Positions 30,259 through 62,796 are shown, numbered from the stretch's first letter. The stretch is 64,000 nt of DNA from an uncultured Bacteroidales bacterium (GCA_963750735.1 CAVVRY010000019.1:144985-208984); one strand, 5' to 3'. The notes: generated by a model not told the origin, from the sequence alone. Numbers and translations are program-made.

Positions 30259-30315
30259 GGTTTAAATCTCAAATTTTATGTTTGTAGGATTCTGTTAGCC
30301 TTCCAATTGCATCTT

Positions 30316-36614: not shown

Positions 36615-36863
36615 CTCATGAATGGTTTATAAGTGTTAAGGAAACAAAAATATAAATTTAAAAATACCATGTAAAAATTTTTGCACAATGCTGTTTAATA
36701 ACATATCAAAGGTATTAAAAGTAGAGTATACCTTCCCAGATAAAACCTTTTTTAAATAATTTAAGAATATTATTAACAAATTATCTGATTTTTGGGCAAT
36801 TCATAAATTGTATTTAGTTTTTTAGGTCTTAAATTACTTTCTTTGCAAAAAATATTTATTCAA

Positions 36864-37988: not shown

Positions 37989-37999
37989 TAATAAAGATC

Positions 38000-38311: not shown

Positions 38312-38397
38312 AACAATTACTCAAGGAAGGAATTGAATATTTCTACAGGTAAATGTTGAATAGAATTTTTTGCTGAAATAAATTAAAAGAAATAAAT

Positions 38398-40624: not shown

Positions 40625-40769
40625 GAAGTGTTTTTGTACTATTTGTTAATGAATAAGGACTGCTTAATTAAAATTCAAATATATTTTTTTTTATTATTTT
40701 TAACTAATAAGATTAGTTCCACGCGGAATCTTTTAAATAAATATTACGAATTAATTCCAGGATGCTTTA

Positions 40770-41803: not shown

Positions 41804-43163
41804 TTAAAAGGTGAGAATTTTTTCGACATTCCCGTTTCTAAGGAATCTTTTTACAATAGATTGAATATCTCGGTTATCCTTATAGGGTCTGATACAGTCG
41901 TGTATTACTTCTGTGCTAAATGAAGCTTCATCTCCATCAAAATAACCGAATCCTAAATATTTCCCATTTTCAATTTTTATAACTGATCTTTCATTCAATT
42001 CTCTGCCCTTGTCTATTATTAAGAAATTTTGATATTCGTATTCAAATACCTTTTTAGCAGAAGTTGCTCTTATATTATATGTTTCTGTTGATTCTTTCCC
42101 GACACAGGCTCCATGACAAATTCCTATTTGATGCTGGAAACATGCTCCTGAAGAGTCGTATAATCCAGCTAATTTCTGACATAAATTGTGATCACTAGAT
42201 ATCTGGGTCAGAAAGTCTTTGGCTTTTTCCAGTGGAAGAAAAACTGGCCATCGGTAATGTGTCTTTTACCTTGCCTATTCTGAAGCATAAGTAATCGTCA
42301 TCGTTGTAAAATGAAAAAATTCCAATGCAGGTAGTTTCTCTTCTTTGTGCGCGGTTATAGACTGGTTTGTTTTTTTTTATCTCATCCGACTCTAATAAAT
42401 ATGCTATAAGTTCACTCCCTGTAATTTCATAGCTTATTTCTGCAATTCGGTCCCGCATTTCAATTTTTTTTCTGGTAGACCTATTCGCAAAGTGATTTAA
42501 AACCCTATGTCTTATATTTTTACTTTTTCCAACATAAAGAAGTTCCTGATTCTCATCATAGAAATAATATACACCCGTGTCTTCCGGTAGATTTTTTACT
42601 TGCTGGCCGTCAAGATTGGGATGAAGGTCTGATAAAGCAGGGTTTACAAAGAGCTTATTATCCAATCCATGATCCAGCCCAAGAAGTATTTCAAATAATT
42701 TTACGGTAGCTAAGGCATCTCCAGCAGCTCTGTGTCTGTTGTTAATTTTAATATCTACTTCTTTACATAGCTTACCGAGGCTATAAGATCTAAGTCCTGG
42801 AATAAGTCTCCGGCTTAATTTGACTGTATCCAATACATCACGCTTATAAATATAACCCAGTCGCTTGAATTCTTCCCTGATGAAGTTGTAATCGAAATTA
42901 GCATTATGGGCAACAAATATTTGATCCTGAGTGATTTCTACAATTTTTTTAGCTACTTCGTAAAACCTTGGTGCATCCTCAACCATTTCATTACTAATAC
43001 CTGTTAACCCAGTAATAAAATAAGGAATAGACTTTTCAGGGTTAATCAGGGTAGAGTACTCATTAATAATTTTTACCCCATCATGGATGTATATTGCGAT
43101 TTCGGTAATTTTATCACTTTGTGGTCTTCCACCAGTTGTTTCTATGTCGATTATCGCATACAA
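41804..43163 (-). pseudogene. DnaQ-like 3'-5' exonuclease fused to a GIY-YIG nuclease domain, interrupted by a +1 frame change
   Basis: The N-terminal ORF (42195..43163) has exonuclease motifs IIDIETTGG and FVAHNANFDYNF, plus GIY-YIG (GVYYFYDENQELLYVGKSKNIRHRV). My translation of the +1 frame from about 42240 gives EKAKDFLTQISSDHNLCQKLAGLYDSSGACFQHQIGICHGACVGKE..., running into ORF 41804..41998. The span is 1360 nt = 453 codons + 1. Confidence 0.8.
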
Positions 43164-44128: not shown

Positions 44129-44156
44129 AGTTCTTTTTTGGTAAGAAATTTCAAAC

Positions 44157-46209
44157 ATGAAAAAGTTATTGAATAAGTTTTATATCCTTTTTGTTTTTAG
44201 CTATATACTTGCTCTAGGATCTGGTTATTCCCAGGATTCCAATATTGGAAATTACTTTCCTGAAATTAATATTTTACATTCTAATGGACCTGCTCCTGGT
44301 TATTTTTTTCTGGCCTCCAAAGGTCTTACTGCGGAAGGTGCAAAGCATTACTTATGCCATAGTTGACAATAATGGCGTGCCTGTTTTTTTTAGATTAATG
44401 CCAAAACCATCTGGGTCATTTAGAGTATTTTCTGACGGACGGTTAGCATATATGCATGGGGTTCCCAGGAAGCTTTATTTCATGGATGAATTGCTGGAGG
44501 TTACAGATACCTTTTCCACTGTTGGCTATCAGATTGATGGTCATGACTATGCTGTTGATAATAGTGGGAATGTTGTATTAATGGCAAAAGTAAACCGACC
44601 TGTGGATATGAGTGCAATTGTTGAAGGAGGCGACCCAAATGCTACGGTTATAGATTTAATTGTTCAAGAATTTGATAGGGACAAAAACCTTTTGTTTACC
44701 TGGAATAGTGCTGATCATTTCAAAATTATGGATGCAAATGAAAATTCTCCGTTTGTTGATTTTACTGAACAGGAAATAGATTATGTACATCCAAACAGTA
44801 TTGCAATTGATTCTGATACAAGTATACTGGTTTCCTGCAGACACATGGATGAAATTACTAAAATTCATCGCAGAACTGGCGAAATTATTTGGCGACTTGG
44901 TGGAAAAAACAATGATTTTACCTTTCTGAATGATACTATTGGGTTTTCACATCAACATAGTATTAGTAGATTGGAAAATGGTAATATTCTTCTATTTGAC
45001 AATGGTAACCTCCATGATTCTTTGTTTTCAAGTGCAGTGGAATATACCCTGGATGAAGTTAACTATACTGCTACGCTTGTTAACAGGTTTCGTAGAGATC
45101 CGGATACATATTCAAATCATGGTGCCAATACTCAACGAATATTTAATGGAAATACTATTATAGGATGGGGGCCTTATTGGCCTTCTGCCACTGAGTTTCA
45201 TCCCGATGGTTCGGTAGCCATTGAGCTTGATTTTACAGAGCATAGTTTTAGCCCGAGGATTGAGAAATTTCAATGGAAAACTAATGTGTTTGAAACATCA
45301 TTGGATACAATTGACTTTGGCATGTGGGATGGAGGTAACTTGATTGAGAAGATTCTAACTGTAAATAATAACCTGGATTCTACAATTTATATAACCAGTG
45401 ATACCTCCTATAGTGGTTGTTTCAATGTTATAACGCCCATTCCCATTGAAATACCTGCTAATGGTGAGACAGAACTTACTATTCGTTTTGATCCATCTAA
45501 TTCAACTTTTGGATATATTGAAGATGTAATTACCTTAATTTCTGATAGTGAAACACAGCGAGTAGCAAGGCAGATCACCGTAAAAGGGGTGAAAGAAGAT
45601 TTTATTGCCCCAACAGTGTTAATTACACCAGATTCATCCAATGTGCCTTTAGATGCAATCGTTCATTTTAACTTCAGCAAACCTGTTCGGAATAAGGATG
45701 GAACGGAATTGAATTATGAATCCGTTGATGATTTATTGATCGTAAAAAAGGATAATGAATCAGGTGAGGATATAGATTTTAATGCAAATATCAATAGTAC
45801 AAAAGACCATATTGAAGTGAAATTTAGTAACGCTCTTGATCCTGGTCAAGAATATTATGTTTCATTCAAGGATGAATTTGAGGATTATTCTGGAAACAAA
45901 TTGGTGGTTACAAATGTTTCTTTTACCACTTGGTCGCCATTGCCTGTGAAGGAAATCTCAGACGAAATTCCTGTAAATATTTTCCCCAATCCAACATCTG
46001 GTTTTTTTATTCTTGAGGTAGATTATGAGGGTTTGAAAAACCTTGAAATATACTCTGCTACTGGAAAATTAATATTGACAAAAATTAATATTTGGGATAA
46101 GAGGATATTTGTTAATATGATAGACCAGAGAGCTGGACTTTATTTAGTAGTTTTAAGATCTGAAGATAACAGAATCCTTTCTTCACAAAAGTTATTTGTT
46201 AGCCATTAG
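44157..46209 (+). pseudogene. Arylsulfotransferase (ASST)-like beta-propeller protein with a T9SS C-terminal sorting domain, interrupted by a +1 frame change
   Basis: The 69-aa ORF 44157..44366 supplies the signal peptide (MKKLLNKFYILFVFSYILALGSGYS) and ..GPAPGYFFLAS.. ORF 44245..46209 supplies ..YAIVDNNGVPVFF.., FSHQHSISRLENGNILLFDNGN and the CTD IFPNPTSGFFILEV...LYLVVL. The span is 2053 nt = 684 codons + 1. The switch lies somewhere in 44300-44363. Confidence 0.75.
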
Positions 46210-50158: not shown

Positions 50159-50936
50159 ATGAAAGTCAGAAATCTTTTGGTCATTCTAACCACTCTTTTT
50201 TTTAGTTTCGCAATCCTGGTAGATTGTGCACATAAAAAGAATACCTCGGCTGGAAGTGATGAATCAAATTCAGATCCTGATCTCAATGCCCAGTGAGATT
50301 AATCAATTAACGAATGCTGAAAAGGAAGATGGTTGGGTATTGTTATTTGATGGTATGAGTTTAGATGGATGGCGAGATTTTAAAGGAGAAACGGTTGGAG
50401 ATGGTTGGACTGTTAAAGATGGGAATCTGATTGCGCTTGGCAAGGGTGGTGATCTAGGTGGAGACATAATATCTGTTGACCAGTATGAGAGTTTTATTTT
50501 GAAATTAGATTGGAAGATATCTGAGGGTGGAAACAGTGGTGTATTTTTTCATGTATTGGAGGAAGAGTATCCAACGGTATATGCAACCGGTCCTGAGTAT
50601 CAGCTTATTGACGATATTGGGTTTCCTGAAAAACTTGAAGATTGGCAGGTGAGTGGAGCAAATTATGCCATGCATCCTCCCGTAAATGTGAAGCTTAAAC
50701 CGGCCGGAGAATGGAATAGCACAGAAATAGTGGTTGATGGACCTCATGTAACACATTTTCTGAATGGAAATAAGGTAGTTGAGTATGAAATGTGGACAGA
50801 TGAATGGACTGAATTGGTAAATAGTGGGAAATGGGATGATTATCCCGATTACGGATTGGCTAAGAAAGGCCACCTTGGTTTGCAGGATCACGGAAACAAA
50901 ATCTGGTTTCGAAATATTAAAATAAAAGAATTGTAG
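50159..50936 (+). pseudogene. DUF1080 (3-keto-disaccharide hydrolase-like) exported protein, interrupted by a +1 frame change
   Basis: My translation from the ATG at 50159 gives MKVRNLLVILTTLFFSFAILVDCAHKKNTSAGSDESNSDPDLNAQ, then a stop at 50294-50296. The ORF-track frame (50226..50936) continues ..EINQLTNAEKEDGWVLLFDG..GGNSGVFFHV..GLQDHGNKIWFRNIKIKEL. The span is 778 nt = 259 codons + 1. Confidence 0.75.
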
Positions 50937-51031
50937 CACTTTCCCTTTCATAAGTGCTTTATTATTTAAGTTTTCCTCTCCATCGATGAATAAAATTTTC
51001 TTATTAGTTCTAACAAAATATTATTGAATTT

Positions 51032-51673
51032 ATGAAAAATAAATCTGGTTTTTTGGTATTGGCAGTATTTGTGGTTTCTCTGTTTTTGAGTTCATTTTCT
51101 GCGATTAATTATAATGGAATTCCTGCTGAAGGAGAAGAATGGATTTCGTTATTTAATGGTAAAGATCTCACAGGATGGAAGATACACGGAACAGAAAAAT
51201 GGTATGTTGATAAGGGGGAACTTGTTTGTGAAAGTGGTCCGGATAAGGAATATGGCTACCTCGCCACAGAAAAGAAATTCAAGGATTTTGAATTAAAACT
51301 GGAATTTAAACAAAGTGCAAATGGAAATAGTGGTGTATTCTTCAGGTCCTCATTGGATGGAACGAAAATCTCAGGTTGGCAGGTAGAGGTTGCCCCTCCA
51401 GGTCACGATACCGGAGGAATTTATGAATCCTATGGTAGGGGTTGGTTAGTTCAAATCCCTGATGAGATGGAAGATATACTTAAAATGGGTGAATGGAATA
51501 AGATGAAAATCCGGGTTGTTGGCGATCGGGTAATTACCTGGCTAAACGGAACTCAAATGGTTGATTTTTCTGACGAAAAAATTGGGGAAGCTTTTGGGGT
51601 TATAGCATTGCAAATCCATTCCGGAGGAGGAATAAAGGTTAATTGGAGAAATATAGTAGTCTCCGAGTTATAA
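51032..51673 (+). CDS. DUF1080 (3-keto-disaccharide hydrolase-like) secreted protein
   Basis: 213 aa with a signal peptide. Motifs WISLFNGKDLTGWK, NGNSGVFFRS, GEWNKMKIRV and ALQIHSGGGIKVNWRNIVVSEL. Confidence 0.8.
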   Translation: MKNKSGFLVLAVFVVSLFLSSFSAINYNGIPAEGEEWISLFNGKDLTGWKIHGTEKWYVDKGELVCESGPDKEYGYLATEKKFKDFELKLEFKQSANGNSGVFFRSSLDGTKISGWQVEVAPPGHDTGGIYESYGRGWLVQIPDEMEDILKMGEWNKMKIRVVGDRVITWLNGTQMVDFSDEKIGEAFGVIALQIHSGGGIKVNWRNIVVSEL

Positions 51674-51740
51674 GCTATATTATTATTTTGTTAATTTCTG
51701 GGTTCGGTCCGTATCTTCTTACCATAACTATGCCTAAATC

Positions 51741-54377
51741 ATGAGAAAAACTAGAATTTCATTGTTTTCAATCTTCATTTTTTCATTTGGACTATTTCTG
51801 TTCTCTTCAATTGCACAACAAACAGGTTTTACCACACCAGAAAAGTATTTCGGATTCAGACCAGGTGATGACAGGAAATTGTTCGATTATGAAGAGTTGA
51901 TTGCCTATTTACAAAAACTTGATGAGGAATCACCCAGATTAAAATTAGAGGAAATTGGGAAGTCCCCTATGGGGAAACCAATGTATATCGCATTTCTTTC
52001 AGCTGAGGAGAATATTGAAAACCTTGAGCAATTGCGAAAAATAAACCATGAATTGGCATTAAATCCTGATTTATCAAACACTGAAAGGGAGCAAATGTCA
52101 AATGAAGGACGTGTGTTTGTATTGGCAACCCTCTCAATGCACTCAGGTGAAGTAGGCCCCTCTCAATCAGCAGCACTTGTGGCACATGATTTGGCTTCAA
52201 CTGATGATCAGGAAAAAGTAGATTGGCTTAAAGATGTAGTGTATATGATGGTGCCCTGCCATAACCCTGATGGTATGGACATGATTGTTCATAATTATAG
52301 AAAACATGTGGGTACTAAGTATGAAGGTGCTTCATTGCCCCGGGTTTATCATAAATATGTTGGCCATGATAATAATCGCGATTTTGTCATCCTTTCTCAG
52401 GAAGATTCAAAGGCCATTGCAAAGGTTTATAATCAAACCTGGTTGCCACAGGTAATGGTTGAAAAACACCAGATGGGTTCTACCGGTACAAGGTATTTTG
52501 TACCACCAAATCACGATCCTATTGCTCAAAATATTGATGCAGGAATGTGGACCTGGGTAGGAATATTTGGACAAAATATGTTCAATGATATGACAAATGA
52601 GGGTTTGGCAGGTGTTTCACAACATTATATTTTTGATAATTATTGGCCTGGATCAACAGAAACCTGTTTATGGAACAATGTGATTTCTTTCTTAACGGAA
52701 TGTGCCAGTTCACGTGAGGCTACTCCCATTTACATTGAGTCTAATGAGTTGTCAGTGAGAGGTAAAGGTCTTTCGGAGTACAAAAAAAGCATAAATATGC
52801 CTTTGCCCTGGAAAGGCGGATGGTGGAGATTGGGAGATATTGTAAAATATGAGATTTCTTCCACAATGTCAATAATTAAAACAGCTTCCTTATACAAAGA
52901 GAAAATTCTCCTCTTTAGAAATGATATGTGTAGAAGGGAAATTGCAAAAGGCAATTCAGAACCTCCTTATTACTATATTATTCCAAGGAAACAGCATGAT
53001 GTAAGTGAATTGGTGAACCTTGTAAACCTAGTTAGAGATCATGGAATTCAAGTTTTTACACTTCAAAAAGATACTGAAATTGATCAACGAATGTTCAATG
53101 CAGGAGACTTTGTAATTCCGTTGGCTCAACCCTATCGGGCTCTTATAAAGGAAATTATGGAAGCTCAGGAATATCCTGAGCGACATTATACACCTGGCGG
53201 GGATTTGATAATGCCCTATGATATAACTACATGGTCCTTACCATTGCATAGGCAGGTAAGAAGTTTCGAGATTAATCTTAAGGAAAAAGCTTTAGATGCT
53301 AATCTTAAAAGTTTGGAGAATGATCTGGATTACTCATTACCAATGCCAGAAACCTTTTTTGCCGCTGTTTACAATGTTAATGACAATGAAAGTTTTAAGG
53401 CAGCTTTCATGGCTATGGAGAACGGAATGAAGGTTGACCGCTTAACAAAGGAATTGTTGGACGATGGGAAAATATTACCTAAAGGAAGTTTTGTAATTTA
53501 TAATAATAGAAAAGCCAAGGCTGGATGGGATAAAATATTAGAAGAAATTAAAATTAGCCCACTTATTATTAAAGAGGAGAGGCCATTGGAATCAGTTCTT
53601 CTTAAAACACCAAGGATTGCTCTGGTAGAAACATTTTTCCATGATATGGATGCTGGCTGGGCTCGTTATGTTTTCGATTATTACCATATCAATTTTACTA
53701 TACTTAATCCAGGAGATATTCCTAAAACTGACCTTAAAGAGAAGTTTGATATTGTAATTTTTGCAGATGATGGGAAATCTCAGTTAATGACAGGAAAGTC
53801 AGGATCAAGTGGTTCATACAATATGAGTAGCTATCATCCTGATTATACCGTAGGTATGGGTAAAGATGGGTTGGAAAAAATCTTGTTATTCATTGAGAAT
53901 GGAGGGCTAGTTCTTTCATGGGGCAGGTCCACAGAATTATTTGAAGGTTTACATAAAATTAAAAATGGTGATAAAGAGGAGGAGTTCCAATTGCCTTTTA
54001 GAAATATTTCAGGAAATCTTCAGAAAGAGGGGCTTCTGGTAGCAGGTTCTTTATTAAAGATCGAGCTGTTAAAAGATCATCCTCTTACACAGGGTCTACC
54101 TGAAGAGATAGGAATCTTTTCCAGGGGGCGTCCTGTATTTGCAACTTCTATACCGCGTTTTGACATGGATCGTAGGGTAATTGGTAAATATGTAGATAAG
54201 GATGTACTTATGAGTGGATATATTGCAAAACCTGAAAAAATTGCCGATAAAAGTGCGCTGGTTTGGATTAAAAAAGGAAAAGGGCAGTTAGTCCTTTATG
54301 GATTTAGTCCTCAATTCAGATCATCAACACAGGCCTCTTTCAAATTGTTGTTTAATGCTTTATTTTTGAACCAATAA
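51741..54377 (+). CDS. M14-family zinc carboxypeptidase-like protein with a large C-terminal extension, secreted
   Basis: 878 aa with a signal peptide. HxxE motif (SMHSGEVGPSQ), NNRDF, and a downstream His (VEKHQMG). Confidence 0.75.
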   Translation: MRKTRISLFSIFIFSFGLFLFSSIAQQTGFTTPEKYFGFRPGDDRKLFDYEELIAYLQKLDEESPRLKLEEIGKSPMGKPMYIAFLSAEENIENLEQLRKINHELALNPDLSNTEREQMSNEGRVFVLATLSMHSGEVGPSQSAALVAHDLASTDDQEKVDWLKDVVYMMVPCHNPDGMDMIVHNYRKHVGTKYEGASLPRVYHKYVGHDNNRDFVILSQEDSKAIAKVYNQTWLPQVMVEKHQMGSTGTRYFVPPNHDPIAQNIDAGMWTWVGIFGQNMFNDMTNEGLAGVSQHYIFDNYWPGSTETCLWNNVISFLTECASSREATPIYIESNELSVRGKGLSEYKKSINMPLPWKGGWWRLGDIVKYEISSTMSIIKTASLYKEKILLFRNDMCRREIAKGNSEPPYYYIIPRKQHDVSELVNLVNLVRDHGIQVFTLQKDTEIDQRMFNAGDFVIPLAQPYRALIKEIMEAQEYPERHYTPGGDLIMPYDITTWSLPLHRQVRSFEINLKEKALDANLKSLENDLDYSLPMPETFFAAVYNVNDNESFKAAFMAMENGMKVDRLTKELLDDGKILPKGSFVIYNNRKAKAGWDKILEEIKISPLIIKEERPLESVLLKTPRIALVETFFHDMDAGWARYVFDYYHINFTILNPGDIPKTDLKEKFDIVIFADDGKSQLMTGKSGSSGSYNMSSYHPDYTVGMGKDGLEKILLFIENGGLVLSWGRSTELFEGLHKIKNGDKEEEFQLPFRNISGNLQKEGLLVAGSLLKIELLKDHPLTQGLPEEIGIFSRGRPVFATSIPRFDMDRRVIGKYVDKDVLMSGYIAKPEKIADKSALVWIKKGKGQLVLYGFSPQFRSSTQASFKLLFNALFLNQ

Positions 54378-54414
54378 CAGTAAACATATAAATTGATAAA
54401 TAAGGAAAACTAAA

Positions 54415-54900
54415 ATGAAAAAAGTAGAATTAAATTATTCAAGATGCCAATTAACTCTTCTAGTAACTTTGAGAGTATTAATTGGCTGGCATTTTTTATA
54501 CGAAGGAGTGGCAAAATTGAGTAATCCTAATTGGTCATCTGTAGGATTTCTTCTTGATTCAAAATGGATTTTTTCTGGGTTATTTCAAAATATGGCAAGC
54601 AATCCTTCCGTTTTAAATACGGTTGATTTTTTGAATATGTGGGGCTTAGTGGCTATAGGTTTGGGACTATTACTTGGATTTTTAACAAGGCCGGCAATTA
54701 TTGGAGGTATAATACTTTTAACGTTTTATTACATATCACACCCTCCTTTTGTTGGTATTACCTATGCTATGCCTTCTGAAGGATCCTATTTATGGGTAAA
54801 TAAGAACCTGATTGAGTTATTTGCACTTGCGGTTTTATATGTTTTCCCAACCAGCCGCATAATAGGAATTGACAGATTTCTATTCAAGAAGTCAGATTGA
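54415..54900 (+). CDS. DoxX-family small membrane protein
   Basis: 161 aa with four predicted TM helices. N-terminal LRVLIGWHFLYEGVAKL resembles DoxX/DoxD-like proteins. Confidence 0.65.
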   Translation: MKKVELNYSRCQLTLLVTLRVLIGWHFLYEGVAKLSNPNWSSVGFLLDSKWIFSGLFQNMASNPSVLNTVDFLNMWGLVAIGLGLLLGFLTRPAIIGGIILLTFYYISHPPFVGITYAMPSEGSYLWVNKNLIELFALAVLYVFPTSRIIGIDRFLFKKSD

Positions 54901-54955
54901 TATTGATTGAATTTTATGAACTTTCAGAATTTAAAAAGGTCAAAAAAGGAAGAAA

Positions 54956-56527
54956 ATGGAAAACGAAAATAAAAAAGACGCAAAACAAGGCAAAACGACA
55001 AGAAGAGACGTTCTAAAGAGTCTGGCCACCGTTCCTGTAGTAGGTGCATTTGCTTATGGGTACTACAAGAAAAAGAAATATGATCAAATGCTAAATACCA
55101 GGATTGCTAAGGAACTTGGCATGGATACTGAGACTCCACCTGTTGCTGATCCTATATCGCCTGACTCAAAGCAGATAAGGTTAGGAATTATTGGTTTTGG
55201 CATTAGGGGAACTCAACTAATGAGAGCTGCAGGGTTCGTTCACCCAGAATGGATTGATAACGTAAGAGAAGCTGGTGAAAAAAATTCAGCAAATAAAAGA
55301 TACGTTGAATATTTGGCCCAGGAAAACCTGAATGTTGTTGTAAATGGAGTTTGTGATATATTTGATGTGTATGCTGAAAAAGCTCTTGCTGCGGCTGCCA
55401 ATATTGAAAGAAATGGAACTGATTCTAAACCACAGCATCAGGTTAAGAGGTATAGTAATTATAAGGAATTGATTGCCGCAGATGATATTGATGCTATAAT
55501 AATTGCATCACCTGATCATTGGCATGGACCTATGACAATTGAAGCTGCCAGGCATGGAAAACATGTGTACTGTGAAAAACCTATGACATGGACGGTTCCG
55601 GAAACCTATGTAGTACGAGAGGAAATCAAAAAGAATAATATAGTATTTCAGCTTGGGCACCAGGGGCGGCAGACTGAAAGTTACAATAAAGCAAAAGAAG
55701 CCATTCAAAAAAATCTGTTAGGAAAGATTTCATTAATTGAAGTTACTACAAACCGAAATACTCCAAATGGTGCATGGGTGTATCCTATTAATCCAAAAGC
55801 CAGTCCTCAGAATATTGACTGGGAACAGTTTATTGGCCAGGCGCCATGGCACGATTTTAGCCTTGAGAGATTCTTTAGGTGGAGATGTTGGTGGGATTAC
55901 AGCACTGGCTTATCTGGTGATTTGCTTACACATGAATTTGATGCTATGAACCAAATTCTGGATCTTGGAATTCCTAAATATGCAACTTCATCAGGCGGAG
56001 TGTATTTCTTTAAAGATGGTCGGACTGTACCAGATGTTCTGCAAACTACTTTTGAATATCCAAACCACGATCTGACTATGTTGTATAGTGCTTCACTGGC
56101 AAGTAGTAAGAACAGGGGTAAGGTAATAATGGGCCATGATGCTAGCATGGAAATTGGCCAGACTTTAACAATTATGCCCGATAGGGACTCCACCAGATAT
56201 GAAAAGAAGATTGAGGAGAAAATAATTGATCCTTCACGACCAATATATTCATATATACCAGGAAGGAAAAATGTTGATGCAGTAACCTCAGCCACAGAGC
56301 AATATTTTGCTGGCAGAGGCTTATTGTATACTTACCGAAATGGAAGAAGAGTTGATACAACTCACCTTCATATCAGAGAATGGTTGGAGGTAATAAGAAA
56401 TGGAGGTGAAACCAGTTGTAATATTGACCAGGGTTTTGAAGAGGCCATGACTGCACATATGGGTACGATTGCCTACAAAGAGGGTAGGAGAGTTGAATGG
56501 GATCCTGACAACGAGGAAATTATTTAA
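54956..56527 (+). CDS. Gfo/Idh/MocA-family oxidoreductase with a twin-arginine (TAT) signal
   Basis: 523 aa. TAT signal TRRDVLKSLATVPVVGAFA, Rossmann motif LGIIGFGIRG, and the EKP motif YCEKPM. Confidence 0.85.
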   Translation: MENENKKDAKQGKTTRRDVLKSLATVPVVGAFAYGYYKKKKYDQMLNTRIAKELGMDTETPPVADPISPDSKQIRLGIIGFGIRGTQLMRAAGFVHPEWIDNVREAGEKNSANKRYVEYLAQENLNVVVNGVCDIFDVYAEKALAAAANIERNGTDSKPQHQVKRYSNYKELIAADDIDAIIIASPDHWHGPMTIEAARHGKHVYCEKPMTWTVPETYVVREEIKKNNIVFQLGHQGRQTESYNKAKEAIQKNLLGKISLIEVTTNRNTPNGAWVYPINPKASPQNIDWEQFIGQAPWHDFSLERFFRWRCWWDYSTGLSGDLLTHEFDAMNQILDLGIPKYATSSGGVYFFKDGRTVPDVLQTTFEYPNHDLTMLYSASLASSKNRGKVIMGHDASMEIGQTLTIMPDRDSTRYEKKIEEKIIDPSRPIYSYIPGRKNVDAVTSATEQYFAGRGLLYTYRNGRRVDTTHLHIREWLEVIRNGGETSCNIDQGFEEAMTAHMGTIAYKEGRRVEWDPDNEEII

Positions 56528-56533
56528 GAAAAT

Positions 56534-56562
56534 AAAAACGGCAGGTTAACCTGCCGTTTTTT
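56534..56562. terminator. Bidirectional rho-independent terminator between the Gfo/Idh/MocA gene and the convergent pckA
   Basis: Perfect 12-bp stem aaaaacggcagg / cctgccgttttt with loop ttaa. The A- and T-runs are built into the stem ends. Confidence 0.8.
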
Positions 56563-56601
56563 ATTTCGCTAATTTTTACTTCAAAGGGTTATTGATGGGT
56601 A

Positions 56602-58230
56602 TTAAACAATAGGGCCAGCACCCAATATTCCTTTTGTAACAAATTCCTTATATTGTTGAAAATTTTCAGTAAACATTTTGGCAAGTTCTTTGGCTTTCTT
56701 GTCATAATCCGACTTATCCTTCCACGTATCTCTTGGCATCAAGATTTCTGTAGGTACATCAGGGCATGATTTCGGTACCTGAAGTCCGAAAATTGGATCT
56801 GTTTCAAATTCAATATCATCCAGTTTACCATCCAGTGCAGCATTTAGTAAAGCACGGGTATACTTAATTGAAATTCTTTCGCCAACACCATAAGGCCCTC
56901 CGGTCCAGCCGGTATTTACAAGCCAGACTTCGGTATTATGCTCCTCTAGTTTTTTACCAAGGAGTTTTGCATAAACACTTGGATGCTGAGGCATAAATGG
57001 AGCCCCAAAACAGGTGCTAAAAGTAGCCTGTGGTTCAGTAATCCCACGCTCCGTACCTGCAACCTTTGCTGTGTATCCCAAAAGGAAATGGTACATTGCC
57101 TGATCAGGAGTTAATTTTGATAAAGGTGGCAATACTCCAAAAGCATCGGCGGTAAGGAAAATTACATTATTCGGATGACCACCATGACCTTCTTTTACTA
57201 TATTATCTAAATGAGTAATAGGATAGGAGGCTCTTGTGTTCTCAGTAAAAGAAGCATCGTTAAGATTAGGCTTCCTGGAGTATGAATCTATTGCAACATT
57301 TTCCAGAATTGTGCCAAACCTTCTTGTGGTTGCATAAATAGCCGGTTCAGCTTCTTCTGAGAGCCTTATTACTTTAGCATAACAGCCTCCTTCAAAATTA
57401 AAAACACCTTCACTTGCCCATCCGTGTTCATCATCTCCAATAAGTGATCTTTCAGAATCAGCAGAAAGAGTAGTTTTTCCAGTACCAGATAGCCCGAAAA
57501 ATAATGCCGTATCACCCTTTTTACCAATGTTTGCAGAGCAATGCATAGGCAATATATTTTTATCCGGAAGCAAGAAATTCATAAGTGTAAATGCAGATTT
57601 CTTAATTTCTCCAGCATAACTTGTTCCTCCAATAAGAATTAATTTTTGAGAATAGTTAACTAGGATAAAAGCCTCAGAGTTGGTTCCATCAAGCTCAGGA
57701 ACTGCATGAAACTTAGGTAAATCAATAATAGTATATGCAGGAATATGATTTTTCAACTCTTCCTGGTCTGTAATTCTAACGAACATGTTCCTCACAAATA
57801 ATGAATGCCATGCATATTCGGTGATTACACGCAGAGGTAATCTGTTATTGGGATCAGTGCCAATATAAACATCTTGAACAAATACATCATCTCCTTGTAA
57901 ATATGCTTGCATTCTGTGCCAAAGACTGGCAAACCTAGATTCCTCAAAAGGTCTGTTAACAGAACCCCACCAGATCTTATCTTCTGAACTTTTTTCTTTA
58001 ACAATAAATTTGTCATTAGGTGATCTCCCTGTGTATGATCCAGTCCGAACCACAACTGGACCTAAATGAGATAATAATCCTTCTCTTCTTTGAATTATTT
58101 GCTCGTATAACCCAGCTGCTGTTAGGTTCCAGTAGATATTGTTCAGATTTTTCAATTTCAAATATTCAAGGCCGTACTGTCCCTCAAGAGCCCTGATCTG
58201 TCCTGGTCCTTGCTGTGTAAAATTTTCCAT
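56602..58230 (-). CDS. pckA: Phosphoenolpyruvate carboxykinase (ATP), canonical copy
   Basis: The ORF track starts at 58293. The ATG at 58230 (MENFTQQGPG) gives 542 aa, typical for PckA. Motifs TGSYTGRSPNDKF, FFGLSGTGKTTLS, IGDDEHGW and WLVNTGW. Confidence 0.9.
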   Translation of the reverse strand: MENFTQQGPGQIRALEGQYGLEYLKLKNLNNIYWNLTAAGLYEQIIQRREGLLSHLGPVVVRTGSYTGRSPNDKFIVKEKSSEDKIWWGSVNRPFEESRFASLWHRMQAYLQGDDVFVQDVYIGTDPNNRLPLRVITEYAWHSLFVRNMFVRITDQEELKNHIPAYTIIDLPKFHAVPELDGTNSEAFILVNYSQKLILIGGTSYAGEIKKSAFTLMNFLLPDKNILPMHCSANIGKKGDTALFFGLSGTGKTTLSADSERSLIGDDEHGWASEGVFNFEGGCYAKVIRLSEEAEPAIYATTRRFGTILENVAIDSYSRKPNLNDASFTENTRASYPITHLDNIVKEGHGGHPNNVIFLTADAFGVLPPLSKLTPDQAMYHFLLGYTAKVAGTERGITEPQATFSTCFGAPFMPQHPSVYAKLLGKKLEEHNTEVWLVNTGWTGGPYGVGERISIKYTRALLNAALDGKLDDIEFETDPIFGLQVPKSCPDVPTEILMPRDTWKDKSDYDKKAKELAKMFTENFQQYKEFVTKGILGAGPIV

Positions 58231-58575
58231 AATTAAGTTGTTATTTTTATTTAGATTATTTTTCGAAAATACTAAAAATATGTTTAAAAACATGTGGATT
58301 AATCTACTTTTTTAATAAAAGTAAGGATGGATTAGCAAGCTTCAAAAAGGTGAAAATATTATTAGGTAAATGATTATTGTTGCATTGGAAATGTTGTCTG
58401 GCAAACTAAGACTGATTCAGTTATAATCATTACATCAATTAGTTAATTATTTTTCGTTTTATATTTTGAACCATTGAATTTCTGAAAATCAACGATGTTT
58501 TTTATACATAATAGCTGAAAAATTCTTAATATTACAATTGTATTCCTTATAGTATAATTCAAATACAAAATCATT

Positions 58576-59418
58576 ATGACAAAGCGTAGAGATTTTATTA
58601 AAACTTCTTCAATTATGGCAGCTGGTAGTATGGTTCTTCCTTTGAGTTCATTTGCTGACTCGAAAAGTGCCCCTTATGGGTTAATTCTTTATACTGTTAG
58701 AGATGAGATGCAAAATGATCCGATGGGAACGCTGGAAAAAGTCGCATCCATTGGGTATGAGGTTGTGGAAGCTGCAGGCTATTCTAACAGGCAGTTTTAT
58801 GGTATGAAACCTGCAAAATTTAAGGAAGCAGTTGAATCTTTTGGAATGAAACTTTTGAGTAGTCATAATGGTGTTACAGAAGACAATGTAGAGGAAATAG
58901 CGGAAGATGCAGCCGAAGCTGGTCTAAAATATGTAATAAAACCCTCAATGGCACATGATAGCCTTGATGATTTCAAAAGAGGTGCAGAAGATTTTAACAA
59001 ATTTGGAGAAATATTCAACCAATCCGGGATTCGATTTGGTTATCATAATCATGCATTTGAATTTGAGAAAATCGATGATATGATTCCATATGATATTCTC
59101 CTGCAGGAAACAGATCCTACATTGGTTACCATGGAACTTGATTTGTATTGGATTACTAAAGGTGGACATGATCCATGGGAATACTTTGAGAAGTTTCCGG
59201 GCAGGTTTGAAATCTGGCATGTTAAAGACATGAAGGAAACCGGAAAGCAATACGAAACAGAGATTGGCAATGGTATTATTGATTTCAAAAAAATATTCTT
59301 CATGAAAAAATTAGCAGGGATGAAGAACTATTTTGTTGAGGAGGATAATTGCCGTGATTTCCCAACTTTTGAAAGTATTCAGATAAGTCTGGACTATATT
59401 AAGAAAATGAAGTTTTAG
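58576..59418 (+). CDS. Xylose-isomerase-like TIM-barrel protein (sugar phosphate isomerase/epimerase family) with a TAT signal
   Basis: 280 aa. TAT signal TKRRDFIKTSSIMAAGSMVLP. Motifs GYHNHAFEF, ELDLYW and WHVKD are typical of the AP-endonuclease-2/xylose-isomerase-like fold. Confidence 0.8.
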   Translation: MTKRRDFIKTSSIMAAGSMVLPLSSFADSKSAPYGLILYTVRDEMQNDPMGTLEKVASIGYEVVEAAGYSNRQFYGMKPAKFKEAVESFGMKLLSSHNGVTEDNVEEIAEDAAEAGLKYVIKPSMAHDSLDDFKRGAEDFNKFGEIFNQSGIRFGYHNHAFEFEKIDDMIPYDILLQETDPTLVTMELDLYWITKGGHDPWEYFEKFPGRFEIWHVKDMKETGKQYETEIGNGIIDFKKIFFMKKLAGMKNYFVEEDNCRDFPTFESIQISLDYIKKMKF

Positions 59419-59481
59419 AAGCTTAAGATATTTTTTGCCTCTGCTATCTTCTTGCTGCTTTTAATAAAACTGCCTAACAGG

Positions 59482-59979
59482 TTAACGACCAGATTTTCTG
59501 GTTACTATTTGAATTGGTAAATCCAGTTTTTGACTGAAATTTTCAGCTTCCTGCTTAGCGATTTCTATTGTTTCGCAATGCATAATTGGAATATCTTTCT
59601 TTTTGGTCTGTCCTGCCAGGCTGATCCTATATCCTTTCTTTTTTATGTCAGTTTGGCGATTGCTTCTACTGAAAGTTGAATAGCTAATATTTGATTTAAA
59701 AAGTTTAATTGCTGAAAAATTATCCAGTGCAACCCATTTTCCTGATTCGAATAATCCGAAATGGCTGAAGTAGTGCTTGACTTTTTTCTCTTCCGTATCA
59801 ATTCTGGTTCCTGAAGAAGAAAATGCTGTATAAGCCCCAATAATTATTAGAAAGATAGCCTCAAGGTAAAAAAATGAGCTAATTACACCAACTGCAATTA
59901 AAACATAACCGGAAAAGACACCTGAGGGGCCAAATATTTTATCAATTTTATTGTTAATTATCATGTTCTTTTTTCGCAA
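59482..59979 (-). CDS. Hypothetical membrane protein (two N-terminal TM helices and a soluble C-terminal domain)
   Basis: 165-aa ORF with a TTG start; an alternative ATG is at 59964. No family recognised. Confidence 0.5.
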   Translation of the reverse strand: MRKKNMIINNKIDKIFGPSGVFSGYVLIAVGVISSFFYLEAIFLIIIGAYTAFSSSGTRIDTEEKKVKHYFSHFGLFESGKWVALDNFSAIKLFKSNISYSTFSRSNRQTDIKKKGYRISLAGQTKKKDIPIMHCETIEIAKQEAENFSQKLDLPIQIVTRKSGR

Positions 59980-60259
59980 AAGAGTTAATTTCTTAATTCA
60001 TCTAAATTACAGTCAATAATGCTATATTTTCCTGATATTCATCATTTATAATAATTTAGGGCAATAATAAATCAATATATGATAGGTCCTTTAACTTTTG
60101 CAAGTTTTCAATAATCTGAAAGAATTGCTTGGCGGGGGGAGTAGGATATTAATAATTGTGAAAATATCAATTTTTAAAAATAAAAAATTAACTATATTAG
60201 AAGTCCCATTTTTAATGGAAAATTATTCAGAACCAAACATATCTTAAATTCAAACTATT

Positions 60260-61744
60260 ATGAGTAAAGAAAAAGAATCAAAATCTATTTCACGCAGGAA
60301 TTTTGTTGGAAGAAGTGCTGCTGCTGCTGCAGGTTTTACAGTCCTTCCATCATTTGTAGTTAGTGGGTTAGGACACAAAGCTCCAAGTGACAAACTCAAT
60401 ATTGCGGGTATTGGAATCGGTGGTATGGGGTTTTCTAACCTCCAAAAAATGGAATCAGAGAACATCGTTGCTCTTTGCGATGTTGACTGGAATTATTCCG
60501 ATAGGGTATTTAAAAAGTATTCTAAAGCAAAAAAATACAAAGATTTCAGGAAAATGTATGAGGAGATGGGCAAATCAATCGATGCAGTTGTGGTCGCTAC
60601 CGCTGACCATACTCATGCTATTGTTGCTGCTCAGGCCATGGCAATGGGCAAGCATGCTTATGTTCAGAAGCCTCTGACACATACTGTTTATGAATCACGC
60701 TTGTTAACCCATCTTGCTAAAAAGCATAAGTTAGCCACCTCAATGGGTAACCAGGGTTCATCCGGAGAAGGTGTGAATTTAACTACAGAATGGTTAGCCA
60801 ATGGTGAAATAGGCGAAATAACAAAAGTTGAAGCATTTACTGACAGACCAATATGGCCACAAGGCTTAAATAAGCCTTCAGAGGTTGAAAAAGTACCTGA
60901 TACTCTTGATTGGGATCTTTTTATTGGTCCAGCCAATCCAAGACCCTATAATTCAGTATATCACCCATGGGCATGGCGTGGTTGGTGGGACTTTGGTACA
61001 GGAGCATTGGGTGATATGGCTTGCCATATTCTTCATCCAGTTTTTGTTGGTCTTAATTTAGGTTATCCGATCAAAGCTCAGGGAAGTTCAACATTGTTAC
61101 TTACCGATTGCGCTCCAACAGCGCAAATGGTAGATTTGACATTCCCAAAGCGAGAGAAAACAAAAAATATGAAAATTGATCTTCCTGAAGTTAAGGTTAC
61201 CTGGTACGATGGTGGTTTACAGCCCAAAAAGCCAGATGGATGGCCAGCAGGAAAAAATATGAATGATGCAGGTGGTGGAGTTATTTTCCATGGAACAAAA
61301 GATAAACTTATCTGTGGATGTTATGGAGTAAACCCATGGTTGCTGTCAGGTCGAGAGCCCAATGCACCAAAATTCAGACGTCGGGTTGAAAAATCACACG
61401 AGCAGGATTGGATCAGAGCATGTAAGGAAAGCCCTGAAAATAGGGTTGAAACTGCATCTCCATTTAGCGAAGCTGGCCCATTCAATGAAATGGTTGTAAT
61501 GGGTGTTTTGGCAGTTCGTCTCCAATCACTGAATAAGGAACTTGAGTGGGATGGCCCAAATATGAAATTCACTAACATAAAGGACAGTGATTCTTTCAAA
61601 ATTGTTGTTGAAGATGGCTATTCAATCCATAATGGACATCCAAGTTTCAAGAAGACAATGTCTGACAAGATCAATGCACAGGAATTTGCTGCAGAATTGA
61701 TCAAGCATAAATATAGAGATGGATATACTCTACCATCAATGTAA
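60260..61744 (+). CDS. Gfo/Idh/MocA-family oxidoreductase with a TAT signal
   Basis: 494 aa. TAT signal SRRNFVGRSAAAAAGFTVLP, Rossmann motif IAGIGIGGMG, and an EKP-like motif YVQKPL. Confidence 0.85.
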   Translation: MSKEKESKSISRRNFVGRSAAAAAGFTVLPSFVVSGLGHKAPSDKLNIAGIGIGGMGFSNLQKMESENIVALCDVDWNYSDRVFKKYSKAKKYKDFRKMYEEMGKSIDAVVVATADHTHAIVAAQAMAMGKHAYVQKPLTHTVYESRLLTHLAKKHKLATSMGNQGSSGEGVNLTTEWLANGEIGEITKVEAFTDRPIWPQGLNKPSEVEKVPDTLDWDLFIGPANPRPYNSVYHPWAWRGWWDFGTGALGDMACHILHPVFVGLNLGYPIKAQGSSTLLLTDCAPTAQMVDLTFPKREKTKNMKIDLPEVKVTWYDGGLQPKKPDGWPAGKNMNDAGGGVIFHGTKDKLICGCYGVNPWLLSGREPNAPKFRRRVEKSHEQDWIRACKESPENRVETASPFSEAGPFNEMVVMGVLAVRLQSLNKELEWDGPNMKFTNIKDSDSFKIVVEDGYSIHNGHPSFKKTMSDKINAQEFAAELIKHKYRDGYTLPSM

Positions 61745-61790
61745 AGTAGAAACCATATAATTTTAACTTAAAATTTATATTATTTTTATT

Positions 61791-62571
61791 ATGAGACTAA
61801 ATAAACTAATTGTTATATCAGGCTTTGCAGCTTTAGCCTTAGTTGCAGGCTGTGCATCTGATTCAAAGAAGTCAGGAGAAGGCAAAGAAGATACGTTGGA
61901 AGCCCTGGAAGCTGAAACGGCAGAAGCCTCCGATAGTTGGATTCTTTTATTTGATGGAAAAACCTCAGATGGTTGGCGTGGATATAGAAGTGAATCTTTT
62001 CCTTCCGCTTGGGAGATTGTTGATGGTACTCTTCATATTCAGGGTTCTGGACGTGGAGAAGCTGGCGCAGCTGAGGGAGGTGATATCCTTTATGATAAGA
62101 AATTCAGTAATTTTCATTTTACTTTTGAATGGAAAGTAGCTGAAGGAGGCAATTCCGGTGTTTTTTATCTAGGTCAGGAAAGTGATGAACTTGACCATAT
62201 TTGGAAAACAGCACCTGAATATCAGATTTTGGATAATGAGAGACATTTAGATGCAGAATTAGGTAAAGATGGAAATAGAAAATCAGCATCCTTGTATGAT
62301 ATTTACCCTGCCAAACCACAAAATCCAACCCGCTGGGGAGTGGAATACAGGTGAGATCATGGTCTACAACGGAACCGTAATTCATAAGCAAAATGGGGAA
62401 ACTGTGGTAGAGTATCATCTATGGACTCCAAAATGGTATGAAGATGTGGCTGCAAGCAAATTTCCTGAGTTGAATGAAACTTGGGCCGAAGTAGCTAATG
62501 AAGGTTATATTGGACTTCAGGATCATGGTGATGATGTATGGTTTAGGAATTTAAAAGTCAAGGAACTATAG
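61791..62571 (+). pseudogene. DUF1080 (3-keto-disaccharide hydrolase-like) lipoprotein, interrupted by a +1 frame change
   Basis: ORF 61791..62354 has a lipoprotein signal (ALALVAGC), WILLFDGKTSDGWRGY, GGNSGVFYLG and ..SASLYDIYPAKPQNP.. ORF 62269..62571 continues ..PAGEWNTGEIMV..GLQDHGDDVWFRNLKVKEL. The span is 781 nt = 260 codons + 1. The switch is within 62317-62334. Confidence 0.8.
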
Positions 62572-62602
62572 TTGGCCATATAAGGAATGATTTAATCTCA
62601 TT

Positions 62603-62641
62603 AATAATGGAAAGGCATTTTTAGTCTTTCCATTATTTTTT
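62603..62641 (+). terminator. Rho-independent terminator after the third DUF1080 gene
   Basis: Perfect 12-bp stem aataatggaaag (62603-62614) / ctttccattatt (62626-62637) with an 11-nt loop and a trailing T-run. Confidence 0.7.
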
Positions 62642-62796
62642 AACAAATAAATTATTGCTTGAAGAGGTAAGAGACTAGGTTTAGATATTAAATATTATAT
62701 GGCCTGAAGCATATCTGTATTATAATTAATATGGATCTTCTTTCTTATCATTTTTCGGTATAAAAACGCGTGGTTGGGTAAGCAAGATTAATATCT

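Follow-up and report, generated by a model that had tools for sequence, protein, structure and literature searches.

Can glycosides be cleaved by oxidation and elimination with the exported proteins encoded at positions 50159-62571 of a 64,000-nucleotide (nt) stretch of DNA from an uncultured Bacteroidales bacterium (GCA_963750735.1 CAVVRY010000019.1:144985-208984)? The whole stretch is called the window hereafter, and coordinates are counted from its first letter. A reading of the sequence alone, referred to below as the original prediction, had proposed that this 12.4-kb locus encodes a periplasmic, cofactor-dependent system in which glycosides are oxidised at C3 and then cleaved by elimination. 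Comparison with a characterised system supports the proposal on the basis of homology and gene neighbourhood, but the pathway itself has already been published. What is new is a membrane protein of the DoxX family invariantly paired with a dehydrogenase of the Gfo/Idh/MocA family (Gfo1), and the frequent integration of this pair into 3-keto-glycoside clusters. We consider it probable from the sequence comparisons that the locus as a whole consists of two linked modules of a periplasmic 3-keto-glycoside ("oxidise, eliminate, hydrate, reduce") pathway. Module A (58576-62571) contains a triosephosphate-isomerase (TIM) barrel protein, a second dehydrogenase (Gfo2) and a DUF1080 protein (DUF1080-3), and Module B (50159-56527) contains DUF1080-1, DUF1080-2 and DoxX-Gfo1.

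The predicted dehydrogenase and lyase and the DUF1080 proteins

The genes of the two modules are as follows; Tat denotes twin-arginine translocation and ORF an open reading frame.

50159-50936, plus strand: DUF1080-1, lipoprotein leader (50159-50296) and domain ORF (50226-50936) in different frames; PF06439, E 1e-50
51032-51673, plus strand: DUF1080-2, divergent paralogue, intact, with a predicted Sec-type signal peptide; PF06439, E 5e-43
54415-54900, plus strand: DoxX, DoxX-family membrane protein; PF07681, E 2e-8, 35.1 bits (cut-off 23.6)
54956-56527, plus strand: Gfo1, Gfo/Idh/MocA dehydrogenase with a Tat motif, distant BT2158 paralogue; Pfam N and C domains
58576-59418, plus strand: TIM barrel, xylose-isomerase-like, twin-arginine leader; PF01261 (AP_endonuc_2), E 3.5e-13
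60260-61744, plus strand: Gfo2, predicted Tat-exported glycoside 3-dehydrogenase, BT2158/AL3 equivalog; GFO_IDH_MocA N and C domains
61791-62571, plus strand: DUF1080-3, predicted lipoprotein (LVAGC), split into 61791-62354 and 62269-62571; PF06439, E 2e-28

The ORF list covered 44-64 kb of the window and its proteins were scanned with Pfam, and in the window as a whole almost all ORFs of at least 120 amino acids (aa) were scanned. The families named in the original prediction (three DUF1080, two Gfo/Idh/MocA, one TIM barrel, one DoxX and one M14 peptidase) were all present, with significant hidden Markov model scores in searches with PF06439, the N and C domains of GFO_IDH_MocA, AP_endonuc_2, DoxX and Peptidase_M14; PF06439 (3keto-disac_hyd/DUF1080) matched 50226-50936, 51032-51673 and 61791-62354. 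These Pfam scans found no SusC/SusD, glycoside hydrolase (GH) or SusR-like gene in the window, in agreement with what had been said of SusC/SusD and classical GH genes; in the rest of the window they found housekeeping genes. The locus is not one co-directional unit, because a phosphoenolpyruvate carboxykinase (PEPCK) gene (56602-58293) and a gene for a 165-aa protein (59482-59979) lie on the minus strand.

The system used for comparison has been described by Nasseri et al. (2024; bioRxiv 10.1101/2024.03.25.586180), who built on Liou 2020 and Liu 2021 (PMC8121099). In that system AL3/BT2158, a Tat-exported protein with firmly bound nicotinamide adenine dinucleotide (NAD), carries out the C3 oxidation of glycosides; AL1/BT2156 is a metal-dependent 3-keto-β-glucoside 1,2-lyase; and AL2/BT2157, a DUF1080 protein, is both a 3-keto-α-glucoside lyase and a 2-hydroxy-3-keto-glucal hydratase, whose 3-keto-glucose product re-oxidises the dehydrogenase (bioRxiv 10.1101/2024.03.25.586180). 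The description of DUF1080 as a hydrolase in the original prediction should accordingly be replaced by this published role. The clusters concerned, BT2156-BT2160 of B. thetaiotaomicron and AL1-AL5 of Alistipes sp., have in common with the present locus a Tat Gfo dehydrogenase, a TIM lyase, a lipoprotein DUF1080, the active-site residues and the adjacency of the Gfo and DUF1080 genes.

Gfo2 scored 880 bits against NCBIfam NF058561 (BT_2158_fam, glycoside 3-dehydrogenase), whose curated equivalog cut-off is 750 bits, and was aligned over model positions 1-486 of 487. It matched the PDB entries 8TDF (E 2e-224) and 8TDH (E 3e-220) over nearly its full length. In the alignment with 8TDF, Gln165, Arg196, Trp199, Asp252, His256 and Tyr355 are identical, and their spacing is that of AL3 Gln161, Arg192, Trp195, Asp248, His252 and Tyr349, under an inferred numbering offset. 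By these matches Gfo2 is a predicted glycoside 3-dehydrogenase of the BT2158/AL3 type. The twin-arginine leaders RRDVLKSLA, SRRNFVGRSAAAAAG and KRRDFIKTSS, pointed out previously for the two dehydrogenases and the TIM barrel, are found in the sequence; the cut-off of the Tat model TIGR01409 (16.7 bits) was passed by Gfo2 (22.3 bits), whereas the TIM barrel (16.1 bits, just under it) and Gfo1 (15.6 bits) stayed below. At the N-terminus of the TIM barrel the KRRDFIK motif is followed by a hydrophobic stretch.

The TIM barrel matched 8TCT (1.3e-44), 8TCD (6.5e-43) and 8TCS (8e-43) over nearly its full length. His157, Asp189 and His215 align with the published metal ligands, Glu256 with the catalytic Glu, and His97, His159 and Trp192 with the published substrate-contacting His, His and Trp, in the spacing published. 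Judged by this alignment, the protein is an orthologue-level relative of the AL1/BT2156 3-keto-β-glucoside 1,2-lyase. The DUF1080-3 sequence, after repair of its reading frame, matched the BT2157 structures 8TDA/8TDE, 3OSD, 8RR2 and 9FBE with an E value of 5e-78; 3OSD, 8RR2 and 9FBE align over the same positions as 8TDA/8TDE and are taken by us as the same BT2157 protein. When the conserved channel residues of BT2157 (Glu103, Asn134, Glu164, Gln166, Tyr190, Lys245, Gln273 and His275) were scored, all eight were found in the repaired protein (E90, N121, E143, Q145, Y169, K224, Q244 and H246), the last three lying past the frameshift. On this residue-level agreement, DUF1080-3 is the BT2157/AL2 orthologue, i.e. 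a predicted 3-keto-α-glucoside lyase and 2-hydroxy-3-keto-glucal hydratase. Throughout, we assume that the matched PDB entries (8TDF, 8TDH, 8TCT, 8TCD, 8TCS and 8TDA/8TDE) are the structures reported by Nasseri et al. Because Gfo2 exceeds the equivalog cut-off, the TIM barrel and DUF1080-3 have the matches given above and the published active-site residues are present, the core appears to be a new member of the known pathway, and it is very probable that Module A is of the BT2156-BT2158/AL1-AL3 kind and, in an intact allele, functional.

The scores were also compared with those of other oxidation-based sugar routes, namely inositol catabolism (IolG/IolE), C-glycoside cleavage (DgpA/DgpBC), levoglucosan degradation (LgdA/B/C) and the GH109-type single-enzyme NAD glycosidases. 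The matches in this direction were weak: 88 and 52 bits for iolG, 48.5 for iolE and 55 and 46 for levoglucosan dehydrogenase, with PDB matches of 2e-8 to 3e-14 for DgpA and 4e-9 for the GH109 entry 6T2B. The curated cut-offs of 355 (iolG), 290 (iolE) and 650 bits (levoglucosan) lie far above these values, and the BT2158/AL matches are far stronger. Furthermore, the locus proteins carry putative export signals whereas the Iol and Lgd enzymes are cytoplasmic, and lyases of the AL1/BT1 type are reported to be inactive on 3-keto-C-glycosides, levoglucosan being no substrate (bioRxiv 10.1101/2024.03.25.586180). The inositol, C-glycoside, levoglucosan and GH109 readings were rejected on score, and we regard a route of this sort as very improbable.

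The two DUF1080 proteins of Module B are less close to BT2157. DUF1080-1 has 3U1X (3e-54) and 8TDA (1e-37) as its top PDB matches and keeps seven of the eight BT2157 residues, the loop with the Glu103 equivalent being absent. DUF1080-2 is only 26-28% identical to the other two; its top PDB match is the N-terminal domain of 4JQT (8e-28), 8TDA giving just 6e-11, and it keeps four of the eight residues (Asn, Tyr, Gln and His), without the E-x-Q motif and the Lys. Leaders had been ascribed to all three paralogues, and this is borne out for DUF1080-2 (Sec-type) and DUF1080-3 (lipoprotein), whereas the leader of DUF1080-1, MKVRNLLVILTTLFFSFAILVDC..., lies in another frame and stops at TGA 50294-50296. 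The C-terminal motif said to be shared by the three fits DUF1080-2, which ends in LQIHSGGGIKVNWRNIVVSEL, only loosely. A tandem of the DUF1080-1-DUF1080-2 type occurs in 10 related loci, and from their gene neighbourhood these two proteins probably work with Module A.

By analogy with the characterised enzymes, the pathway would proceed as follows. Gfo2, exported in the folded state by Tat with tightly bound NAD, would oxidise the C3 hydroxyl of a gluco- or manno-configured sugar at the non-reducing end. The metal-dependent TIM-barrel lyase would then eliminate β-linked aglycones, and the lipoprotein DUF1080-3 would eliminate α-linked ones and hydrate the resulting 2-hydroxy-3-keto-glucal to 3-keto-glucose, which reduced Gfo2 would turn back into glucose.

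A second AP_endonuc_2 TIM-barrel gene (326-343 aa, without an NCBIfam name) directly follows the DUF1080-3 gene in the two nearest relatives (L003:18305-19285 and L094:4273-5304; L numbers denote related loci and contigs in our comparison). The window is without this gene, and 226 nt (62572-62796 region) separate DUF1080-3 from a mechanosensitive-channel gene.

Frameshifts in the DUF1080 genes

The original prediction treated DUF1080-1 and DUF1080-3 as single ORFs, but each is split over two frames, and the frames had been spliced tacitly. We used L003 (GCA_964472455.1), the nearest relative, as a reference; its nucleotide identity to the window is about 78% in both genes. The DUF1080-1 orthologue of L003 (L003:5169-5945) is intact and encodes 258 aa; compared with it, the window contains an additional nt near 50294. 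In DUF1080-3 the first 187 codons (61791-62354) are read in one frame and the last 100 (62269-62571) in another, and at about 62326 the window is 2 nt short relative to L003, L095 and L096. Intact 254-aa DUF1080-3 genes are present in L003 and L094, and a homology search with the repaired protein found an intact 260-aa protein, P0241, which is 99% identical. Its contigs, L095 (ENA) and L096 (JGI), have 98.8% nt identity to the window over up to 4.15 kb.

Such breaks could mean that the locus is decaying here: two of the three DUF1080 genes would be inactivated, the second TIM barrel and a cytoplasmic reductase lost, and the pathway no longer working. Besides the frameshifts at about 50294 and 62326, the absence of the extra AP_endonuc_2 gene of L003 and L094 and of any cytoplasmic Gfo gene in the window points in this direction. 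Within the preceding 10 kb, however, three unrelated genes are also frameshifted, all in the same +1 sense:

40761-41787, plus strand: phosphotriesterase-family gene; break at about 41080, N-terminal part in the other frame up to about 41087
41807-43163, minus strand: DnaQ-exonuclease/GIY-YIG gene; break at about 42230, Cys-rich C-terminal part continuing in 41807-42265
44145-46209, plus strand: arylsulfotransferase with a type IX secretion system sorting domain; break at about 44300, signal peptide in frame 44145-44363

Together with the two DUF1080 genes, five genes are broken in about 22 kb, and a scan of 1-40 kb of the window found no frameshifted gene there. The same +1 sense in three unrelated genes indicates a technical cause. 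Comparison of the window with L095 and L096 moreover revealed five single-nucleotide polymorphisms (SNPs) within 20 nt (62318-62337) around the 2-nt indel, the sequences being otherwise 98.8% identical, which is the pattern expected where an assembler has merged strain variants. All remaining members of the set have their full length and share 80-91% identity with the L003 orthologues. Because the upstream genes are also shifted and DUF1080-3 is intact, at 98.8% identity, in two independent assemblies, selective decay of the DUF1080 genes is less likely, and the most likely origin of the frameshifts is faulty assembly or a lesion at strain level. A locus decaying to the point that its pathway has ceased to work therefore seems improbable to us.

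Six contigs with an identical DoxX end short of both frameshift sites, and the indel of DUF1080-1 was compared with L003 only. Look-ups of exact products for the 187-aa N-terminal fragment of DUF1080-3, DUF1080-2 and the M14-like protein gave no match, and a metagenome pattern scan recovered a single relative, L094, which is 80% identical.

The DoxX-Gfo1 pair

Relatives of Gfo1 were searched for with a profile in one genome per species, which gave at least 357 loci, and the best 80 of these were used for all counts, with the window proteins compared by tblastn. These 80 loci belong to Bacteroidales metagenome-assembled genomes, Prolixibacteraceae, Marinilabiliaceae, Rikenellaceae, Tannerellaceae and Lentimicrobiaceae, the cultured carriers including Parabacteroides faecis JCM 18682, P. 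goldsteinii DSM 19448 and Dysgonomonas sp. 521. In every one of the 78 assessable loci, L023 with its overlapping genes included, Gfo1 is directly preceded by a DoxX gene on the same strand; between the end of the DoxX match and the start of that of Gfo1 the median distance is 60 nt. Of the 37 loci flanked by 5 kb or more on either side, 21 have both BT2158-like and DUF1080 genes, 14 have the TIM barrel and 12 have all three; BT2158-like neighbours exceed the equivalog cut-off (785 and 897 bits). Clustering of the neighbouring ORFs without labels gave five recurrent families, namely the Gfo cluster (79 loci, with 35 extra copies), DoxX (76), DUF1080 (41), the TIM barrel (27) and a cytoplasmic YdgJ-like Gfo (15), and all other families were present in at most six loci. 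A DoxA-like gene is absent among these recurrent neighbours.

The co-localisation in related genomes that the original prediction had proposed to look for is thus observed, because the families recur together, including in species-level representatives of several taxonomic families. Such genomes contain many DUF1080, Gfo/Idh/MocA and xylose-isomerase-like genes, and minus-strand genes interrupt the locus, which could suggest a chance juxtaposition of abundant periplasmic families of Bacteroidota. The grouping is, however, conserved over Prolixibacteraceae, Rikenellaceae, Tannerellaceae, Dysgonomonas and Lentimicrobiaceae; chance is refuted by this synteny and we give it almost no weight. Compact arrangements are seen in L008 (DoxX-Gfo1-TIM-Gfo2-DUF1080) and L027 (DUF1080-DUF1080-DoxX-Gfo1-TIM-cytoplasmic Gfo-Gfo2-DUF1080), and in the window such a set has been spread out by the insertion, specific to the lineage, of M14, PEPCK and the 165-aa gene.

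The cytoplasmic Gfo/Idh/MocA protein (about 350 aa) is encoded in 15 loci. Its gene is flanked by those of the TIM barrel and the BT2158-like protein or, as in L085, by those of Gfo1 and the TIM barrel; examples are L027:9408-10460, L030:8308-9363, L020:10542-11594 and L085:11586-12659. It is of the YdgJ/PRK11579 type with about 308-337 bits, three of the four tested reaching the 330-bit cut-off, and scores only about 42 bits against BT_2159_fam, so that it is an analogue, not an orthologue, of BT2159; it is absent from the window.

Gfo1 has more than 7000 database relatives at E<=1e-20, the top 120 at 64-90% identity. Against NF058561 it scored 133.7 bits (cut-off 750) over residues 161-370 only and is not an equivalog; its best PDB sequence match is 8TDF (7e-27, residues 162-349). 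Comparison of the Gfo1 family with the BT2158-like family by hhalign gave a probability of 99.9% with 26% identity, and showed that Lys208 (EKP), Gln236, Arg267, Asp322 and His326 are kept, the equivalent of Trp199 being Pro. By this alignment Gfo1 represents a family related to BT2158 but outside it, with catalytic residues kept and a different predicted pocket. Its AlphaFold model (predicted local distance difference test, pLDDT, 78; predicted template-modelling score 0.80) has the standard Gfo fold after a long N-terminal helix (residues 27-54), and a Foldseek search of this model against the PDB found generic sugar dehydrogenases only (RgNanOx, DgpA, YjhC, levoglucosan dehydrogenase and glucose-fructose oxidoreductase, GFOR), whose functions were not separated. 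The Tat-leader region of Gfo1 (54956-55120, residues 14-55; SRRDxLKxLATVPVxGAFAYGxYKKxKY) is about as conserved among 52 orthologues as the mature enzyme. From the model, the N-terminal helix up to residue 54 may be an uncleaved membrane anchor and not a removed signal peptide.

For DoxX, four transmembrane helices are predicted, and the AlphaFold model has four long helices (pLDDT 76). The orthologue alignment has invariant polar residues W40, D48, S49, H109-P111, E122, G123, Y125 and K130, which on the positive-inside rule would be placed in loops facing the periplasm. Its orthologues are labelled "thiosulfate dehydrogenase (quinone) large subunit" by JGI. The best fold matches were weak, E being 0.6 for NACHO/TMEM35A and 1.3-5 for vitamin-K-dependent carboxylase; these two share a Pfam clan with DoxX and are a lead only. 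A thiol-oxidase role of the DsbB/VKOR kind is unlikely, because DoxX has no conserved cysteine.

Cofactor re-oxidation limits the rate of the published system more than 100-fold in vitro, and re-oxidation in vivo by "specialized proteins" was left open (bioRxiv 10.1101/2024.03.25.586180). Judging from what is known of its family, DoxX might hold Gfo1 at the membrane and pass reducing equivalents to menaquinone, and DoxX-Gfo1 would thereby give the pathway an oxidative entry or re-prime the bound cofactor. Thermodynamically, the step from NAD(P)H to menaquinone is a downhill one. We think it rather likely, from the gene neighbourhood, that Module B is functionally linked to the pathway; the coupling of Gfo1 to quinone through DoxX is a doubtful possibility, and only tentatively can one go as far as to see in the pair an unrecognised two-component, menaquinone-linked periplasmic glycoside or sugar dehydrogenase whose bound NAD(P) is re-oxidised by DoxX. 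Alternatively, Gfo1 might act on sugars rejected by AL3, such as galactosides.

Several points weigh against these two linked modules and the role given to DoxX-Gfo1. The support consists throughout of homology and gene neighbourhood. The α-lyase/hydratase step may be missing in this exact strain, because DUF1080-1 has no in-frame leader and DUF1080-3 is truncated. Profile scans detected in the window neither a SusR-like regulator nor a cytoplasmic Gfo of the BT2159 or YdgJ kind, and the second TIM barrel of L003 and L094 is missing as well. The B. thetaiotaomicron cluster BT2156-BT2160 is described without a DoxX, and the accounts of the BT and AL clusters consulted make no mention of DoxX-Gfo1. 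DoxX scored 19.7 bits against PF04173 DoxD, under the cut-off of 22.7, and a Foldseek search with its model gave no significant match (E > 0.5). The conserved N-terminus of Gfo1 may be just a cleaved Tat signal, with an AFA-Y site present. It would be unusual for bound NAD(P)H to pass a hydride to quinone with no flavin in between. Finally, DoxX-Gfo1 stands alone amid unrelated or housekeeping genes in 13 of the 37 well-flanked loci, with genes for tryptophan synthesis, purine synthesis (formylglycinamide ribonucleotide amidotransferase) and efflux around it, which means that the pair can function without the other genes nearby.

This last point leads to the explanation that DoxX-Gfo1 is an independent, membrane-linked periplasmic sugar or polyol dehydrogenase, e.g. 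a respiratory aldose or inositol dehydrogenase, that merely lies near exported sugar enzymes. In L007 the pair adjoins galactose and arabinose genes; Gfo1 is under the BT2158 equivalog cut-off and has lost the Trp of the AL3 sugar pocket; and Foldseek groups it with generic sugar dehydrogenases. In the remaining 24 of the 37 loci, however, the sole recurrent neighbours of DoxX-Gfo1 are the four 3-keto-pathway families, often in a tight co-directional run, and the closest characterised relative of Gfo1 by sequence is AL3/BT2158. We regard an independent dehydrogenase as unlikely and keep the linkage of Module B with the 3-keto-glycoside pathway as the preferred reading.

Neighbouring genes, related systems and meaning

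The remaining features within the locus are as follows.

51741-54377, plus strand: M14-like protein, 878 aa, predicted secreted; PF00246, E 4e-14, 53.3 bits (cut-off 21.6)
56534-56561, no strand: hairpin, perfect 12-bp stem with A5/T5 runs (AAAAACGGCAGGTTAACCTGCCGTTTTT), between the stop codons of Gfo1 and PEPCK
56602-58293, minus strand: PEPCK, second copy, convergent with Gfo1, conserved there in the closest lineages only
59482-59979, minus strand: 165-aa membrane-like hypothetical protein between the TIM barrel and Gfo2, hydrophobic in its N-terminal half

The original prediction had counted the M14 peptidase among the set, an assignment that synteny does not bear out: it lies beside DoxX-Gfo1 just in the closest lineages (L003, L010 and L045), i.e. 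in 2 of the 80 species-level loci, PEPCK is found in 3 of the 80, and neither M14 nor a close PEPCK occurs in any of the 37 well-flanked loci. Both were rejected as pathway members on this basis. The PF00246 match covers profile positions 2-136 of 286 only, an H-S-G-E motif being visible by eye, and the M14-like protein has no PDB sequence match. The 165-aa protein, for which no Pfam or NCBIfam family was found, is encoded at the same position in L001, L003, L094 and L095, and L063 has a relative with 37% identity at another place. M14, PEPCK and the 165-aa gene are neighbours specific to the lineage: the window shares them only with L003, L010, L045 and L094.

The window has two paralogous genes for ATP-dependent PEPCK, at 15736-17388 (plus strand) and 56602-58293 (minus strand), with 54.5% identity over 528 aa. 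The hairpin at 56534-56561 is likely, from its sequence, to be a bidirectional terminator ending the DUF1080-1-to-Gfo1 unit. Terminator-like sites were no more frequent in a scan than in shuffled sequence, and a sigma-70 promoter scan and a search for the Bacteroidetes -7 motif TAnnTTTG likewise did no better than in shuffled sequence.

Elsewhere the window encodes 2-oxoglutarate dehydrogenase E1 and E2 (29008-33138, minus strand), the PntAB transhydrogenase (36843-39819, plus strand) and a menaquinone-biosynthesis (VitK2_biosynth) family protein (2034-2792, minus strand). These genes are suggestive of a respiring organism, to which a quinone-linked dehydrogenase in the periplasm would be of use.

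Compared with the BT and AL clusters, the order of the genes in the window is split by minus-strand genes, a BT2159-type cytoplasmic Gfo and a SusR/DUF6377 regulator are lacking, and two DUF1080 paralogues (one of them divergent) and DoxX-Gfo1 are added; the host is an environmental Bacteroidales bacterium, of marine or sediment origin, and not a gut Bacteroides or Alistipes. Periplasmic C3 oxidation before cleavage is shared with the routes of Agrobacterium, Sinorhizobium and Caulobacter (ThuAB, LacABC and the flavin adenine dinucleotide-dependent glucoside 3-dehydrogenase with cytochrome c), which send electrons to the respiratory chain, as is proposed here for DoxX-Gfo1. Their dehydrogenases are, however, flavin/cytochrome enzymes unrelated to Gfo/Idh/MocA, whereas the putative acceptor here is a DoxX protein, and no cytochrome, LacABC or ThuAB homologue was seen in the window. 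The GFOR of Zymomonas mobilis is likewise a Tat-exported Gfo/Idh/MocA protein with a non-dissociating nicotinamide cofactor and periplasmic ping-pong between two sugars, but it is distant (its structures 1H6A/1OFG match Gfo1 at about 5e-10), functions without a partner in the membrane and oxidises glucose at C1, not glycosides at C3.

Small multi-helix membrane proteins similar in build to DoxX are known from the DoxDA thiosulfate:quinone oxidoreductase of Acidianus and the DoxD-like superfamily (MauE, NACHO/TMEM35A and the HTTM domain of vitamin-K-dependent carboxylase). The DoxX of the window differs in that it is under the DoxD cut-off and has neither a DoxA partner nor a sulfur-metabolism context, and its quinone role is putative. 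DgpA/DgpBC and LgdA/LgdB1/LgdB2/LgdC combine the same two folds, Gfo-type C3 oxidation being followed by a xylose-isomerase-like lyase, but these systems are cytoplasmic, have no DUF1080 and are far less similar in sequence than the BT/AL enzymes. The literature search, whose coverage leaves out many subscription papers, turned up no relevant work in which DoxX is combined with Gfo, MocA, 3-keto-glycoside or glycoside 3-dehydrogenase.

That environmental Bacteroidales conserve a non-Koshland 3-keto-glycoside pathway almost to the residue is an unremarkable result, but annotation benefits from it, because genes labelled DUF1080, "sugar phosphate isomerase" and "Gfo/Idh/MocA oxidoreductase" in such clusters can now be named, and loci without classical GH genes may still degrade glycosides. 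DoxX-Gfo1 is a concrete and testable candidate for solving the problem of cofactor re-oxidation in vivo, and its carriers include cultivable Parabacteroides and Dysgonomonas. If the proposed role is true, the pair would supply the 3-keto-sugar "primer" or the electron outlet that is missing from the BT2158-type pathway in vitro, the non-hydrolytic cleavage of glycosides would be tied to respiration in Bacteroidales, and a large DoxX subfamily would obtain its first function.

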